Positions 12-9,442 of a DNA stretch of 64,000 nt are shown here, piece after piece (within the stretch, counting starts at the first letter, position 1; every line of letters starts with the position of its first letter). Made by a program: the position numbers and the translations under genes. Under the pieces are notes generated by a model. The model was given only the letters and a program-made list of their open reading frames with translations, did no database searches and was not told the origin of the DNA. The DNA lies in the IMG/VR virus record IMGVR_UViG_3300009151_000053, positions 1-64,000 of that record; one strand, given 5' to 3'. This DNA comes from a virus.

Positions 12-611
12 ATGCCCTCTGTATTTTTGACATCTGATACACACTTCGGTCATGCTGGAGTGTGTCGCTTTCTTACCAACACTGGTGAGAAGTTGCGCCC
101 ATGGGACAATCCAGATGATATGGACGAAGATATGGTGAAGCGGTGGAATGAAACCGTGAAGCCAAACGATAAGGTCTATCATCTTGGTGATGTTGTGATC
201 AACCGCAAGGCTCTGGCTATTATGCATCGCCTTAACGGTGATAAGGTGCTGATCAAGGGCAACCATGACATCTTTAAGTTGGATGATTATACGCAACACT
301 TCCGTGAGATTCGTGCATACCAGGTTATGGACGGTATGATTCTAAGTCATATCCCTATCCATGAAGCAAGTCTTGGAAGATTTGGCACGAACATCCACGG
401 ACATCTGCATAGCAATCGTGTGATGAAGGCCAACGGCTTTGACAAGAAAACTGGTCAAGTGCTGTATGGAAATCAGATCGATCCAAGATACATTAGCGTT
501 TGTGTAGAAGCCACAGACTTTCGTCCTATTTTATTTGAAGAAGTGAGGCAACGTATCATCGACCAAGGTGGAACTGTCGGATTTAAGAACGGAAACGGTC
601 CCACTATGTAA
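12..611 (+). CDS. Calcineurin-like metallophosphoesterase
   Basis: Motifs SDTHFGH, HLGDV, KGNHD, LSHIP and IHGHLH. Confidence 0.9.
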
Positions 612-1164
612 GGGTTCTGCCTCGAGTCCAATCAGGTCCGGGGCAGTCTTTTACTACTTTGTTGATATAGCCATTAGTCCACCAAATGGCACCAATGCGT
701 TTTGTTCCAATAAGTTGTTTAGTAGATTCGGATAACTTTTGACCTGTTTTACTTTTGCTACCTTTGGCATTTTGATTGCCTGTGGCACGAATCGATCTCG
801 CTTTACACATATCTTCTGTATATACAGTATTTTTTGCAAGTTGATTTCCTAACAAACGAATAGACGACTGATGTCTATGTTTAATCGATGGAATCCACCC
901 GGACACACCATCTCCTCCATCAGTTTTGTTATACAATATTCCAGAACTTAAATCTTTTCGTCCATACCAACGGATATATCTACGCTCTAATGCACATGCA
1001 CCAATATCTGATAAGTTCGTTTCTAAGAATATGATCTTTGATTTGTCTTTGGGAACAGACACATTATGTTGTGGTGAATATGCTCTGTTGCCTTTTCCTT
1101 TACCAATATAGTAAGGCGTTCCATCAGATTTTCTGACATAGGCATAGACGTAATAAATAAACAT
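604..1164 (-). mobile_element. Free-standing GIY-YIG homing endonuclease (Seg-like)
   Basis: N-terminal YVYAY...PYYIGKG..RAY, catalytic-type ALERRYI and YNKTDGG; basic NUMOD-like C-terminus; antisense to its neighbours; AAGGAG RBS. Confidence 0.85.
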
Positions 1165-1233
1165 TGCTGATACTCCTTGAAAGTGTTAGAGTCTGTGGAT
1201 ATTGACGTATCGTGACAGACACTTCTATTTATA
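1165..1233 (-). promoter_or_regulatory. T4-type late promoter plus structured leader of GIY-YIG gene 1
   Basis: TATAAATA on the minus strand at 1233-1226, then a GTCTGT/ACAGAC stem and TCTAACACTTTCAAGGAGTATCAGCA before the ATG; second copy at 2700-2771. Confidence 0.75.
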
Positions 1234-1259
1234 TTTTTCAGGAAACTACTAAATAATGA

Positions 1260-1382
1260 TTGCCATTCGCTCGGTATCATAGTATATTGAGTGAGTAAGC
1301 CGATGCGCTGAGGCTTAGAAGCGCCGTGAAACGTAGAGAACGGAATGCACGAAAGACATTCGCTGGATTGCGTAACCAGCAC
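1260..1382 (+). ncRNA. Candidate structured non-coding RNA, family not recognised
   Basis: Non-coding; lies between ACTAAATA (1248-1255) and TATAAATA (1384-1391); five adjacent stems and a possible pseudoknot. Confidence 0.5.
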
Positions 1383-1383
1383 T

Positions 1384-1391
1384 TATAAATA
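1384..1391 (+). promoter_or_regulatory. T4-type late promoter
   Basis: Exact TATAAATA upstream of the cell wall hydrolase gene. Confidence 0.7.
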
Positions 1392-1520
1392 GTATCTTAA
1401 CCAGATCGTAAAACGCGGTCTTTATTGAAAACACCCTACACACTTTTGTACGGTGGTTCTTCGCTCCCTATCCTATCAGTTTAGAGAAGAGAATGTTCGA
1501 AGACAAATAAAGGAAGAATA

Positions 1521-2075
1521 ATGACGAATGGATTCAAGCAATCTAAAACCCTTCAAGACATCTTTGTTGGTATTGCAATATCTCTCGCACTAACACTGAC
1601 TGTCCAACAAGTGTTCCATAGACCATCGGAACCAATAGTTATTGAAAGACAAGTTATCGTTAAAGTCCCAGTCTACCTAAGTGTGCAAGATAAGAAGCAG
1701 ATCAAGTGTCTTGCTGATAATGCATACTTTGAGGCTGGTAATCAAACAACAAGAGGAAAGATTGCCGTCACTAATGTCGTAATGAATAGGACAAGTGACG
1801 ATAGTTTTCCAAGTACTCCATGTGGAGTTGTCAAACAAAAGAAGCAAGGTCGTTGCCAGTTCTCATGGGTCTGTGAGAAGAAAAAGGTAGTTGACGTTGA
1901 TGTTTACACAGAAAGCAAACGAGTTGCCGAACAAGTTTATATCCAAAACATTGGAGATGTAACTGCTGGAGCAACGTTCTACCATGCCAATTGGATGAAA
2001 ACTTATCCTTTTTGGTCAAAGGTATTTAAGCAAACGGTAAAAATAGAAGATCATATATTTTATTCAGAATCATAA
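1521..2075 (+). CDS. SleB-like cell wall hydrolase (Hydrolase_2 family) with N-terminal membrane anchor
   Basis: CLADNAYFEA, AVTNVVMNR, CQFSW, GATFYHA and HIFY motifs; hydrophobic N-terminal segment. Confidence 0.9.
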   Translation: MTNGFKQSKTLQDIFVGIAISLALTLTVQQVFHRPSEPIVIERQVIVKVPVYLSVQDKKQIKCLADNAYFEAGNQTTRGKIAVTNVVMNRTSDDSFPSTPCGVVKQKKQGRCQFSWVCEKKKVVDVDVYTESKRVAEQVYIQNIGDVTAGATFYHANWMKTYPFWSKVFKQTVKIEDHIFYSES

Positions 2076-2699
2076 AGAACATTTATTTGATGTGATGTGT
2101 TGTCTGTAGTTTCCTGGATTAAAACCTTTGCCACATTTAGCACACACATTTTTATTTTGTTTTTGAAAATCACTTATGGCTTTCTTATGAAAATCTGTTC
2201 TCGGCGGTATTGTCTGTAGTTTTCTTTTATCTTTTATTTTGTTCTTTGTTTCTTGTGACATAGGTCTTCGTGCTGATGGATTTGGCACTCCTGTTTTAGT
2301 TTTTTTCATTTTCTCAATAACATCTTTAGGCCTTGGTTTTCCTAAACGAGATTCTTTGAGTTTTTGTTTTGTTTTTTCAGAACAAGGATGACCTTTCAAC
2401 CCCGTCTTTCCTTTATTCCAAGGTGTTCTTCCGGCAGCAGTTTCTCCACCGTCTGTCATATTTCTTAATATTCCAGTGTTATTATCTTTTCTTCCATACC
2501 AACGAATATATCTTCTTTCTAACGCAAGAGCGCCAAGTTCTGAAAGATTTCTTTCCATTATTATGATTCGTTCTTTTTCAGAAGGAAGATTTACTCTATG
2601 CTCGTTTGAATATGCTCTTTTGTTTTTACCTTTACCGATATAATAAGGCGTGTTATCTTTTCTAAGATAAGCATACACATAATAGACATAAATACTCAT
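2070..2699 (-). mobile_element. Free-standing GIY-YIG homing endonuclease with NUMOD3-like repeats
   Basis: [53 protein letters not shown] and a C-terminal CxxC; start placed at ATG 2699 because AAGGAG precedes it; AT-rich. Confidence 0.85.
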
Positions 2700-2771
2700 T
2701 GCTGATACTCCTTGCAAGTGTTAGAGTAGATGGAGTTCTGGGGAGTCCTCGCGATCTACATTCTATTTATA
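2700..2771 (-). promoter_or_regulatory. T4-type late promoter plus structured leader of GIY-YIG gene 2
   Basis: TATAAATA on the minus strand at 2771-2764, a GTAGAT/ATCTAC stem, then TCTAACACTTGCAAGGAGTATCAGCA. Confidence 0.75.
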
Positions 2772-2819: not shown

Positions 2820-3065
2820 ATGGAAGAAATCGTACTAGAAAAGGCTCTATCGAGTGAAAAGTTTACAGCCGATATTGAAAATCTGATTGCACAACATAAA
2901 CTTAACTATGTTGATGCGGTCATTCATTATTGCAACATCAACAACATTGAAGTCGAAAGCGCAGCCACAATAATCAAGCAAAATCTTAAGATGAAGGCTC
3001 AACTAGAGTCTGAGTATGAGAGTCTTAACTATTTGCCAAAGCGGGCTAAACTGAACTTCGGATGA
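2820..3065 (+). CDS. 33: Late promoter transcription co-activator, T4 gp33-like
   Basis: F..DIE...LNYVDAVIHYC..NNIEVE...LNYLPK pattern; 81 aa; synteny 33-59-32. Confidence 0.85.
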   Translation: MEEIVLEKALSSEKFTADIENLIAQHKLNYVDAVIHYCNINNIEVESAATIIKQNLKMKAQLESEYESLNYLPKRAKLNFG

Positions 3066-3655
3066 GAGTTGCTATGACTCCCTTTGAGACTTACAAGACA
3101 TTCGTTGCTCTTAAGGCACACTTTGAGACCAATTATGATTATATTAAAAATAATGGTAATACAAAAAATATCACACAAGATGTCTTTAAACAGAGAAGAG
3201 ATGCCAACTTCTTTTACAAAATAGCCAGACATAAAGACTCGAAAAACTTTATGCTGGCTAACTTTGTTGGCAATTCTATTTCTTATGCTGGTGATCTAGC
3301 AACTGATAAAGCGGATGTTGTATATTCAGACTGGCTTAAGCGGCAGCAGGCTATTACATATATCTTTACTGAAGACTGCAATAAACTATTGACAAACTTC
3401 AATGAAAACTTTATAGTAAAGAGTGGGCAGAGACCACATGCATTGAAGTTATACTTACAGAAACAGATCAGTATTGAAACACTGATCATTTTGAATGACA
3501 TATGCAAGTTCTTTCCACATTGGAACAAGACAATCACTGAAACGATTATCTGGCCATCAATATATAAGAAGTGCATTAAATATAAACCGTTCTTTCGTTA
3601 TGACACTGCAAAGTGTAAACAGATCATGAGAGACATATTTACAGGTGATGAATGA
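3062..3655 (+). CDS. 59: DNA helicase loader, T4 gp59-like
   Basis: MTPFETYKTFVALKAHF..NYDY, ISIETLIIL and KYKPF motifs; synteny. Confidence 0.85.
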   Translation: MRVAMTPFETYKTFVALKAHFETNYDYIKNNGNTKNITQDVFKQRRDANFFYKIARHKDSKNFMLANFVGNSISYAGDLATDKADVVYSDWLKRQQAITYIFTEDCNKLLTNFNENFIVKSGQRPHALKLYLQKQISIETLIILNDICKFFPHWNKTITETIIWPSIYKKCIKYKPFFRYDTAKCKQIMRDIFTGDE

Positions 3656-4554
3656 CTGATTACTTTCAATACAATGTAGGACTGCCATCCAACCCTTTCA
3701 TGGATGCTCCTGCTCCTTTGTTCTCTGATAAAGAGACAGCGGATAAGATGGCTCGTGCAAAGCAAATCAATGACGACACTTTCTGGGCTTCTATGCGTGA
3801 AGTCTTTGCTAAAGACCTGGAAACGCTTCCTATGGAACGCTTCAAGGTCTGGGCTTCCACTATGACTGTTCCTATCATGAGTCGCAATCGGTTAACTGCT
3901 TATATGAAGATTGCTTTGGATGCTCTTGAACTTAAGGCAGTCGATGGACCCACTCGTACTGAGATTGCATTAACCGAACCCATGATTGGTATAACTGAAA
4001 AAGATTATCCAATCTATGCAGTCTTTGATGACTTCAAGACAACCATGAATCGTATCCAAGCATTCGCACATCTTAAAATCAATCGTATCTCTGCTGCTGA
4101 CCTTGAGCGTATGGACACAATCGTTGAACTTGGCGGTGGTGTTGGTGATATGGCTGATGTTGTCTACAAGTTGGGATTCAAGGGTAAGTATATCATCTAT
4201 GACTTCCCTGAACTTGGTAAGATTCAAAAGTGGTATCACGATGAACTTGGGTTGACAAACGTGGTACATACTGATAATATTAATGATCTGGTAGACGCTG
4301 ATCTATGCATCGCTACTTGGTCATTGACCGAAATGCCTATGGATTTGAGAGATCAGATTGTAGACAAGATCGGGAATACGAAGAATTGGCTCATTGCCTA
4401 TTCTAATGAAATCTTCGGATTTGATAACGATAAATACATCCGTGAGAACTTGCTTCCACGGTTCAAAGTCGGCTATGATACAGAGTTTACCGATGTACCA
4501 TATATGGCTTGGGATGGTGGCACCAAGTATGTCACGATCAAACAAAACACATAA
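3652..4554 (+). CDS. Putative SAM-dependent sugar O-methyltransferase
   Basis: IVELGGGVG SAM-binding motif, YIIYDFPE and DLCIATWSLTEM. Confidence 0.65.
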   Translation: MTDYFQYNVGLPSNPFMDAPAPLFSDKETADKMARAKQINDDTFWASMREVFAKDLETLPMERFKVWASTMTVPIMSRNRLTAYMKIALDALELKAVDGPTRTEIALTEPMIGITEKDYPIYAVFDDFKTTMNRIQAFAHLKINRISAADLERMDTIVELGGGVGDMADVVYKLGFKGKYIIYDFPELGKIQKWYHDELGLTNVVHTDNINDLVDADLCIATWSLTEMPMDLRDQIVDKIGNTKNWLIAYSNEIFGFDNDKYIRENLLPRFKVGYDTEFTDVPYMAWDGGTKYVTIKQNT

Positions 4555-4589
4555 TCATACACTTAACATAAACATACAAGGAAATAAAA

Positions 4590-5489
4590 ATGTCATTTGC
4601 AGACCTAAAGCGTACTTCTTCCAGCAACTTTGAAAAGTTGAACCAAGAACTTTCAAAGATGAACACAAAGTCATACAATGATGACGACAAGGATAAGTAC
4701 TGGTACCCAGACACCGACAAGGTTGGTAACGGCTATGCTGTTATTCGGTTCTTGCCACCAGCAGAAGGCGAAGATATTCCATTCGTCCGCATCTGGGACC
4801 ACAGTTTCAAGAATCCAGATACTGGACAGTGGTATATCGAGAAGTCGCTATCGACTCTTGGTAAGGCTGATCCGCTCGGCGAGTATAACTCAAAGTTGTG
4901 GAACTCTGGTATTGACTCTGATAAGGAAATCGCTCGCCTTCAGAAGCGCCGTTTGACCTTTGTCTCTAACATCTATATCATCAAGGATGGTGCTAATCCT
5001 GAAAACGAAGGAAAGGTCAAACTCTTTAAGTATGGTAAGAAGGTGTTCGACAAGTTGAATGATGCAATGAACCCACAGTTTGATGATGAAAAGCCAATGA
5101 ACCCATTTGACTTCTGGGCTGGCGCGAACTTCAAGTTGAAGATTCGTCAAGTCGAAGGCTATCGTAACTACGATAAGTCCGAGTTTGATGCAGTTGGTGC
5201 ATTGTTTGAAGATGACTCTAAGTTGGAAACAATCTGGAAGCAAGAGCAATCTCTACAGGCTCTGATCGATCCTAAGGTCTTCAAGACCTACGAGCAACTT
5301 CAGGCTCGTCTCAATCTGGTGTTGGGTAAGACCAAGACTGTGGCTGAGACACGGAATAGTTTTGTCGAAGATGATTATGTAGCACCTGCGCCTGCGGCTA
5401 AGGCTGCTCCCGCAAAGGCTATTGCGTCAACTGATGACGATGATGACGACGGGCTAGAGTTCTTCAAGCGACTCGCTGAAGAGGACTAA
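4590..5489 (+). CDS. 32: Single-stranded DNA-binding protein, T4 gp32-like
   Basis: GNGYAVIRFLP, WYIEKS, YGKKVFDK, GANFKLKIR..EGYRNYDKSEF and an acidic C-terminal tail. Confidence 0.95.
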   Translation: MSFADLKRTSSSNFEKLNQELSKMNTKSYNDDDKDKYWYPDTDKVGNGYAVIRFLPPAEGEDIPFVRIWDHSFKNPDTGQWYIEKSLSTLGKADPLGEYNSKLWNSGIDSDKEIARLQKRRLTFVSNIYIIKDGANPENEGKVKLFKYGKKVFDKLNDAMNPQFDDEKPMNPFDFWAGANFKLKIRQVEGYRNYDKSEFDAVGALFEDDSKLETIWKQEQSLQALIDPKVFKTYEQLQARLNLVLGKTKTVAETRNSFVEDDYVAPAPAAKAAPAKAIASTDDDDDDGLEFFKRLAEED

Positions 5490-8842: not shown

Positions 8843-8869
8843 TATAAATATCATCATACTCTATTTATA
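8843..8869. promoter_or_regulatory. Face-to-face pair of late promoters
   Basis: TATAAATA on + at 8843-8850 (towards the HNH gene) and on - at 8869-8862 (towards the tail-tube-like gene). Confidence 0.65.
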
Positions 8870-8881
8870 AAGGTTACTCCA

Positions 8882-9442
8882 ATGATTCATAAACATCATA
8901 TTATTCCCAAGCATATGGGCGGCACAGACGACACAGATAATCTTATTGAATTGAGTGTTGAAGAACATGCAGAAGCGCATAGAATGCTTTATGAACAACA
9001 TGAAAGAAAAGAAGATTATCTCGCTTGGAAAGGATTATCTGGACAAATTGATAAAGAAGAAATATTAAAAGAAATATATGTAAAAAATGGAAAAAAATTA
9101 GGTAAAAAAAATATAGGAAGAATTCCTTGGAATAAAGGATTAACAAAATCAGATCCAAGAATTAAAGCGAGTGCTGATAAAATGTGTAAACCAAAAACAG
9201 AAAAACATAAACAAGCACTGCGTAAACCAAAATCAGATAAAGGTAATATAGGAAAATACGAAAGAACGGATGAAACAAAACAAAAACTGAGAGAAGCGAA
9301 TGTTTTACGGTTTAATGAAGAAGGTCGCAAAAAACACTCGGAAATAATAAAAAACAATAGAAGAAAATGCAGTTATTGTGATATGGTATCAAATGTATCA
9401 AACATAACCAGACACGAAAAGAAATGTCCTAAATCTGTCTGA
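8882..9442 (+). mobile_element. Free-standing HNH homing endonuclease (Mob-like)
   Basis: HKHHIIPKHMGGTDD..NLIELSVEEHAEAH, PWNKG, NUMOD3-like repeats and a C-terminal Zn knuckle; very A-rich; antisense to the operon. Confidence 0.85.

Follow-up and report, generated by a model that had tools for sequence, protein, structure and literature searches.

A possible antisense RNA module at the 5′ edge of homing-endonuclease cassettes in uncultured T4-like phages

The DNA stretch analysed here (the window, 64,000 nucleotides) covers positions 1 to 64,000 of IMG/VR record IMGVR_UViG_3300009151_000053, an 82-kb contig from an uncultured T4-like phage of fresh water (lake). Its minus strand carries two free-standing GIY-YIG (Seg-like) homing endonuclease genes, each flanked by plus-strand genes and each headed by a copy of the same structured leader. 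Comparison of this leader with its relatives on other viral contigs shows that its helices obey Watson-Crick and G.U pairing rules solely on the strand opposite the nuclease gene, which is the plus strand of the window. The leader is a two-faced, portable module of about 85 bp, placed at the 5′ edge of homing-endonuclease cassettes in uncultured T4-like phages. We see an even chance that it gives rise to a cis-antisense RNA, which may double as the leader of the next host gene.

Read along the gene strand, the module consists of (N)ATAAATA, 3–5 nt, hairpin 1, (T)CTA, hairpin 2, CAGC, 0–2 nt, the ATG and the codons NNT ATT TAT. On this strand, hairpin 1 has a 6-bp outer stem, a C-R-C element whose R is paired with a Y, a 3–4-bp inner stem and a 6–7-nt loop. 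Hairpin 2 usually spans 17 nt, and the Shine-Dalgarno (SD) sequence is placed in its loop and 3′ arm, with AGG as the loop end. Both leaders were located on the minus strand at the coordinates given in the original prediction, which was made from the letters of the window. In copy 1, the T4-type late promoter TATAAATA of the GIY-YIG gene is at 1226–1233 (minus strand), TCTA at 1190–1187, CAGC at 1169–1166 and the ATG at 1164–1162. The complement of hairpin 1, named hairpin 1′, occupies 1191–1220 on the plus strand, as supported by covariation, the wobble pattern and the fold; its 6-bp outer stem leads to an R-Y pair between two bulged G, which are C on the minus strand, and then to an inner stem of 4 bp and a loop of 6 nt. 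The complement of the promoter, UAUUUAUA, forms a U-rich stretch 3′ of hairpin 1′. On the other side, positions 1166–1190 (plus strand) hold GCUG, hairpin 2′ and one unpaired A, which is based on the fold, on the covariation of hairpin 2 and on U.G being found on the plus strand only. Hairpin 2′ itself (1167–1189) has 8 bp including CUG/UAG, and its 7-nt loop CCUUGAA is complementary to the nuclease SD. A late-promoter-like sequence, AATAAATA, is present at 1152–1159 (plus strand), within codons 2–4 (TTT ATT TAT T) of the nuclease gene.

Copy 2 contains the same parts: the late promoter TATAAATA at 2764–2771 (minus strand), hairpin 1′ at 2726–2759 (plus strand), which has the outer stem and bulge architecture of copy 1 and a longer apical part, a segment with GCUG, hairpin 2′ (2702–2724) and one unpaired A at 2701–2725 (plus strand; from the fold, with CAGC on the minus strand at 2704–2701), and the late-promoter-like CATAAATA at 2687–2694 (plus strand), inside codons 2–4 (AGT ATT TAT G). 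The outer stems of the two copies, GTCTGT/ACAGAC and GTAGAT/ATCTAC, differ by three compensated pair changes, as had been noticed initially. The same is true for the near-identity of their 3′ parts: the 29-nt block 5′ of the ATG differs at one base between the copies and occurs exactly twice, both in the window and in the 82-kb record, with 0 occurrences expected by chance. The C-terminal halves of the two proteins indeed look unrelated, their likeness being limited to the N-terminal 92 residues or so. The proposed alternative pairing of ACTC with GAGT is found in both window copies, yet it is not conserved among relatives: the base after GGAG is C in 40, T in 38 and A in 21 of 100 copies, while ACTC is fixed. 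A switch of this kind was dropped as being without comparative support.

A protein-based scan of viral contigs was used to collect relatives of the nuclease; among the best 80 of at least 574 relatives, about 65 carry the same leader. The set was widened with a covariance model and two DNA-pattern scans, giving 188 distinct copies. Most of them head nuclease open reading frames (ORFs), which bears out that the element travels with nuclease genes. It is not tied to a single nuclease family as originally supposed, since it heads 84 ORFs of the GIY-YIG type seen in the window, at least 27 of other GIY-YIG types, at least 25 HNH ORFs and others. Every headed ORF opens with M-x-I-Y, those of unrelated nuclease types included. 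Because unrelated nucleases carry the same module, autoregulatory binding by the nuclease itself, another of the initial suggestions, is unlikely. The element was also correctly regarded as not belonging to a named motif: Rfam 15 gave no match at gathering score in the window, and none at the element at E-values up to 10 for the window region and eight related loci. Megablast and blastn against cultured phages likewise returned no match to the element. The only recognisable cultured-phage version is a divergent one in Pseudoalteromonas phage vB_Psh_XG4 (PP712099.1, an unannotated record; locus L224, 1426–1503; model R1, 33.6 bits), which keeps hairpin 1 with CGC...C and has TGTAG in place of TCTAA and CCACC before the ATG. 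Synechococcus phage S-SRM01 (locus L223, 1420–1505) has a homologous GIY-YIG gene with a classical design instead, i.e. a single long hairpin (TGTGTCAGGGGTGAT...ATCATTACCCCTGACACA) ending at the ATG, with TATAAATA in its loop. At another locus (L132, minus strand), the leader lies at about 7105 in reversed coordinates and is intact; it precedes an 11-codon mini-ORF starting M-N-I-Y and, after that and in another frame, an ORF of 189 residues, which to the eye is possibly PD-(D/E)XK- or resolvase-like. The module may have captured a further type of nuclease here.

Folding of either window copy on its own was not significant when compared with shuffled sequences (z −0.2 to −1.7), so the case for a structure rests on the comparison with relatives. 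In the 55 distinct leaders selected through their proteins, 96% of the cells of hairpin 1 are paired, 11 of the 11 pairs are changed on both sides and 170 cells are compensatory, a level of covariation reached by 0 of 500 shuffles. The conserved, covarying structure first noticed in two copies is therefore confirmed. In an antisense-oriented alignment of 80 distinct copies, 98.6% of the cells are paired, 16 of 16 pairs are changed on both sides, 362 cells are compensatory (reached by 0 of 500 shuffles), and the G.U pairs show an ordinary spread.

On the sense strand of all 188 copies, counting gave 1087 Watson-Crick, 41 A.C and 0 G.U pairs for the outer stem; the first three inner pairs have 560 Watson-Crick, 4 A.C and 0 G.U, and the R-Y pair is GC in 158 copies, AU in 12, A.C in 18 and G.U in 0. 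Hairpin 1 as a whole thus has 63 A.C against 0 G.U, and no sense-strand constraint is seen in it. The same is found in hairpin 2, for which 100 copies were counted on the sense strand: its second pair (1–15) is C.A in 47, C-G in 24 and U-A in 23, and its first pair is A-U in 75 and A.C in 19. An A.C on one strand is a G.U on its complement. As the non-Watson-Crick pairs are A.C on the gene strand and never G.U, the fold has been selected on the strand opposite the gene, and since the A.C exceptions are spread over at least 20 different stems, the pattern does not go back to one inherited event. The original idea of a cis-regulatory switch in the nuclease mRNA is therefore retained in part: the element is structured, covarying and mobile with the nucleases, but in hairpin 1, the R-Y pair and hairpin 2 alike the wobble-type exceptions place the fold on the other strand. 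The complement also folds more stably in 68 of 73 copies, with a mean of −19.6 compared to −15.2 kcal/mol. A separate observation concerns the loop of hairpin 1, whose first and last bases are, family-wide, C..A (17 copies) or U..G (8) and never Watson-Crick; this position looks like a wobble geometry that reads alike on either strand.

The sense promoter 8-mer is found directly upstream of the nuclease ORF in 177 of the 188 members, and in 115 its distance from the first G of hairpin 1 is 5 nt. On the complement, codons 2–4 (NNT ATT TAT) read NNTAA[A/G]TA in 177 of the 188 copies, which is late-promoter-like and faces the gene's own TATAAATA. The commonest antisense 8-mers are AATAAATA, GATAAATA and TATAAATA, and the minor variants GTAAATA and ATAAGTA occur as they do in the nuclease's own promoter. 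The antisense 8-mer is separated from GCTG by 5 nt in 145 of the 177, and a conserved G is located about 5 nt downstream of each of the two facing promoters. Given that the T4 late motif spans about −13 to −6, this G would be at +1 in both directions. In the 161 of the 188 copies used for the codon count, which had already been selected for the motif, codon 2 specifies at least 9 amino acids (twelve codons) but has T as its third base, and the Ile of codon 3 is written ATT, never ATC or ATA, whereas the background in the rest of these genes is 44% ATT. The constraint at codons 2–4 is one on nucleotides and not on protein. The two 7-mers are also mutually complementary: the promoter 7-mer matches codons 2–4 fully in 39 of 73 copies, and two copies pair ATAAGTA with TACTTAT. 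At the variable end pair, the combinations are A/G 21, C/A 21, C/G 7 and G/G 1, with no compensation, and the A/G position is only weakly associated (Fisher p 0.04). As an RNA helix, the pairing of the promoter with codons 2–4 thus showed no real covariation, and because the end position is uncompensated and the A/G link weak, the 7-mers are preferably read as two facing promoters.

Other signals were considered and dropped. A plus-strand promoter of sigma-70 or MotA type (TTGCTG, 17 nt, TAGAGT) has as its last −10 base a covarying stem position, and the promoter and terminator scan called neither a sigma-70-like site nor a terminator at the element. Nor was a hammerhead-like CUGAU core or a tRNA-like three-way junction retained, since the remaining core motifs are lacking and Rfam has no match. 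Facing late promoters may well be common to such cassettes in general, judging by the third nuclease gene of the window, an HNH gene on the plus strand (8882–9442) that lies antisense to its minus-strand neighbours. It has facing copies of TATAAATA at 8843–8850 (plus strand) and 8862–8869 (minus strand); these are 11 nt apart, so that the predicted starts nearly coincide, and there is no hairpin between them.

From the position of the promoter-like 8-mer in codons 2–4 of the module, late RNA polymerase would start at or next to the invariant GCUG and make an outward RNA (plus strand), the first 55 nt or so of which would form two adjacent hairpins followed by ACUUUAUUUAU. The minimum-energy fold from GCUG onward consists of exactly two hairpins in 177 of the 188 copies, with a core of 55 nt and 6–8 U in the next 12 positions. 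On the plus strand, hairpin 2′ lengthens to 8 bp through the pairing of an invariant CUG with an invariant UAG, and a single unpaired base precedes hairpin 1′. Together with the 98.6% paired cells, this is the pattern of an antisense RNA whose own stable fold is under selection. The outward RNA would be perfectly complementary to the 5′ untranslated region (UTR) of the nuclease mRNA, including the SD. It would pair with this mRNA by loop-loop contacts, as RNA-OUT and RNA-IN of IS10 do, and hold nuclease translation down. In molecules reading through the U-rich stretch, the two hairpins would form the 5′ leader of the host gene that follows, a role that may coexist with the antisense one.

The genomic setting of the module was compared with a related phage DNA contig free of both nucleases (run X4; about 87–94% identical over the aligned pieces). 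This contig lacks both cassettes and joins window positions 609 to 1277 and 1989 to 2788, which delimits the mobile cassette of copy 1 to 610–1276 (the relative has 19 other bases instead) and that of copy 2 to 1990–2787 (54 other bases). No more than 16 nt separate TATAAATA from the edge of the copy 2 cassette. The module thus belongs to the mobile unit, at whose very edge it is located, adjoining the following plus-strand gene, in line with the element-end position that had been suggested. Other contigs of run X4 have break points where hairpins 1 and 2 begin or end, and one has the ATG of gp33 directly after TATTTATA. Related contigs with loose ends at window positions 2716 and 2760 match the window only between the borders of hairpin 1 and then pass into other nuclease starts or host flanks. 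This suggests recombination at internal borders of the module.

This setting also gives the best of the alternatives, which is possible but in our estimate rather unlikely: the module could be a compensating outward promoter and leader, which restores late expression of a host gene cut off by a cassette inserted antisense to it, the two-hairpin fold acting as a 5′ stabiliser or translation aid with no control of the nuclease. Both neighbours are opposite in orientation to the cassette at 36 of 56 loci. Of 181 copies, 146 have an outward ORF that begins no more than 350 nt away, the median distance from the hairpin base being 65 nt. At the edge of the cassette, the module directly adjoins the host gene, in one relative with the gp33 start right behind it, and the hairpin would begin 1 nt from the predicted 5′ end. 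The HNH cassette of the window has its facing late promoters without an overlapping RNA, and a review of T4 notes that invading endonucleases bring promoters for their neighbours (PMC2988022). Three solo or remnant modules without a nuclease gene (L164, 2928–2990; L211 and L197, minus strand) have their hairpins intact and lie between opposite-strand host genes; the antisense promoter is lost in two of these three, which kept the fold all the same, and this speaks against the outward-leader reading. For a generic stabiliser, the bulges would not have to be invariant, nor would it need to overlap the nuclease SD completely. Cassettes with the same orientation as their neighbours, which have no outward gene to serve, keep the antisense promoter equally well (31 of 35, compared with 88 of 99 outward-facing ones) and also the A.C-only pattern (15 A.C and 0 G.U). 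Since both features are kept there, a self-contained antisense unit is favoured.

RNA contigs of run X2, a metatranscriptome, and of run X23 were compared with the window; such contigs carry neither strand, ends nor levels, and the parts left uncovered mean nothing. Contigs of run X2 cover 59% of the stretch, with a depth of 21.7 over gp32 and 2–5 elsewhere. One of them (2672–2875) begins in the first nuclease codons, crosses the leader with its sense promoter and reaches gp33, which fits a plus-strand RNA across the leader.

Several points weigh against the antisense RNA. DNA carry-over may have contributed to the RNA contigs, which give neither strand nor ends. The distance from the antisense 8-mer to GCTG is 6 nt, not 5, in both window copies, and the RNA start at GCUG follows from a T4 late promoter geometry which we assume to apply here. 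The two 7-mers being mutually complementary, the second "promoter" could be the 3′ arm of a closing helix. The result for same-orientation cassettes may be inherited, as cassettes move between contexts, and the orientation calls are crude. Hairpin 1′ is a weak candidate for the terminator of the outward RNA: it has a mean of −10.2 kcal/mol and 6–8 U in the next 12 nt, but its stem is bulged, its base is AU-rich, 2–3 nt separate it from the U run and the scan is silent. Finally, simple antisense pairing does not account for the bulges, although they are conserved, or for the UAGA, which is invariant. These two features hint at contact with a protein or with the polymerase.

The complementarity of the 7-mers is the starting point of a further explanation, to which we give little credence. 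It is a classical T-even mask, in which AUAAAUA of read-through transcripts pairs with UAUUUAU of codons 2–4, hairpins 1 and 2 become the scaffold of a three-way junction hiding the start, and late transcripts escape. The full complementarity in 39 of 73 copies and the two pairs of matching variants agree with it, the minimum-energy fold of the whole element closes the helix between promoter and codons, and there are precedents in I-TevI, I-TevII, I-TevIII, segB and mobE (PMC2988022); similar metagenomic hairpins have been interpreted in this way by Dassa et al. 2009 (PMC2677866). The uncompensated end pair and the weak A/G link are what one would not expect of such a helix, few sense read-through transcripts are expected because most cassettes face away from their neighbours, and the wobble pattern confined to the antisense strand is left unexplained.

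No more probable is the original view that the fold acts in the nuclease mRNA, as a 5′ stabiliser, a protein-binding site or an SD switch. Hairpin 1 would supply the first base of the sense transcript, sense pairing still amounts to 96% and the SD is within hairpin 2, all of which would suit it. Against it stand the 63 A.C without a single G.U in hairpin 1 and C.A as the commonest state of one pair of hairpin 2; in addition, spacers of 3–4 nt put the sense start inside the stem in 53 of 177 copies, and the sharing of the module by unrelated nucleases argues against autoregulatory binding. Very improbable, lastly, is a strand-specific structure of single-stranded DNA, formed for instance while the cassette edge is replicated or undergoes recombination-dependent repair: the strand bias would fit DNA too, G.T being the mildest mismatch there, G.U is fairly rare in hairpin 1 (about 4%) and the element sits at the edge of a DNA element spreading by break repair, but one pair of hairpin 2 is G.U in about 40–50% of copies, as is typical of RNA, the cassettes share no protein known to act on DNA hairpins and the promoter geometry fits RNA.

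Extending the antisense reading to the whole family, we tentatively propose, with less confidence than for the antisense reading itself, an unnamed class of compact (about 55–70 nt) late antisense RNA genes located in the first codons and 5′ UTR of homing-endonuclease cassettes across uncultured T4-like phages. Such an RNA might be an exchangeable, universal governor that sets the nuclease dose and feeds transcription into the neighbouring host gene, perhaps via contact of a protein or the polymerase with the bulged-G motif.

Control of single endonuclease genes by late promoters and by hairpins hiding the ribosome-binding site is well described for T4 (PMC2988022). The systems of T-even phages and Aeh1 (I-TevI, I-TevII, I-TevIII, segB and mobE) resemble the present one in having TATAAATA immediately upstream and hairpins around the SD, and their expression is limited to late infection, as is predicted here (PMC2988022). 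In contrast to these, one sequence family is common here to about 190 distinct cassettes of unrelated nucleases, with two defined hairpins that have invariant bulges and a second, facing promoter core inside codons 2–4; the fold is selected on the opposite strand, and the SD occupies a loop and 3′ arm instead of being buried in a long stem. A further likeness by description is with the "fractured genes" of marine metagenomes reported by Dassa et al. 2009 (PMC2677866), which are also uncultured phage-like loci with hairpins and TATAAATA before free-standing endonucleases. Of 16 UTRs preceding GIY-YIG and other endonuclease ORFs, 15 had hairpins, 10 of them with TATAAATA, along with two conserved complementary motifs, and at one locus the hairpin was retained after loss of the endonuclease (PMC2677866). 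They were regarded as translational hairpins of the mRNA on the basis of single-sequence folds, without covariation analysis, strand test, second promoter or family model (PMC2677866).

Antisense control of a selfish element is known from RNA-OUT/RNA-IN of IS10/Tn10 (PMC5006887) and art200 of IS200 (PMC4513863), in which a short antisense RNA with a stable fold of its own is complementary to the region where translation begins and keeps ribosomes from binding. As is predicted here, the gene of the selfish element is opposed by a promoter inside its own 5′ region. The differences are the phage late promoters, the two-hairpin fold, a predicted RNA that may continue into the host gene and a predicted overlap of about 55 nt that stops just before the AUG. 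In cyanophage S-PM2, the antisense RNA CfrI of about 225 nt links psbA and an endonuclease gene (Millard et al. 2010, cited in PMC2984593), and would be comparable in lying opposite a homing endonuclease gene of a T4-like phage; it is not known to be a conserved portable two-hairpin module. The PeSL cassettes of T4-type phages combine a terminator stem-loop with an early sigma-70-type promoter (PMC2839356, PMC4122927). They too are small promoter/stem-loop units at gene borders and points of modular exchange, which can be compared with the contig ends breaking at hairpin borders. Unlike them, the module described here has late-promoter cores on both strands, heads nuclease genes only and showed no sigma-70 site with terminator.

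Homing endonuclease genes must stay quiet and spare the operons they invade. T4 solves this gene by gene with ad hoc hairpins, whereas here one exchangeable module serves many unrelated nucleases, and the antisense RNA would be a layer of control barely documented in T4-like phages. If the proposal is true, it provides a testable model of selfish-gene domestication, an RNA family new to annotation and to Rfam, a marker by which free-standing nuclease cassettes can be found and delimited in viral metagenomes, and a compact bidirectional late-promoter part for phage engineering.

The two headed genes were examined with respect to their family. The copy 1 gene (604–1164, minus strand) codes for a free-standing GIY-YIG (Seg-like) homing endonuclease of 186 residues that matches PHROG 15526 and 314, and tblastn with this protein found phage genes annotated as Seg-like or intron endonucleases. 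The copy 2 gene (2070–2699, minus strand) codes for a GIY-YIG homing endonuclease of 209 residues with NUMOD3-like repeats and a C-terminal zinc-finger-like motif; its start is the ATG at 2699–2697 and not the TTG at 2717 given by the ORF listing. PHROG homing endonuclease families match both proteins, and the Pfam GIY-YIG score is below the cut-off. The profile of the nuclease family matches a solved GIY-YIG protein with an E-value of 9e-4. Y..Y, YIGKG, R27 and E60 are invariant in 19 GIY-YIG sequences, and both window proteins have the N-terminal GIY...YIG module. Beside copy 2, the plus strand codes for gp33, gp59 and gp32 (2820–5489), with gp33, the late co-activator, starting at 2820 (Pfam). 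Beside copy 1, a 287-nt non-coding stretch (1234–1520) separates the cassette from a cell-wall hydrolase gene. It contains a sigma-70-like site at 1260–1288 (plus strand), with the −35 inside the cassette and the −10 outside, and a further TATAAATA at 1384–1391 (plus strand); a non-coding RNA at 1248–1391 had been proposed initially, and an RNA contig covers 1362–1775.

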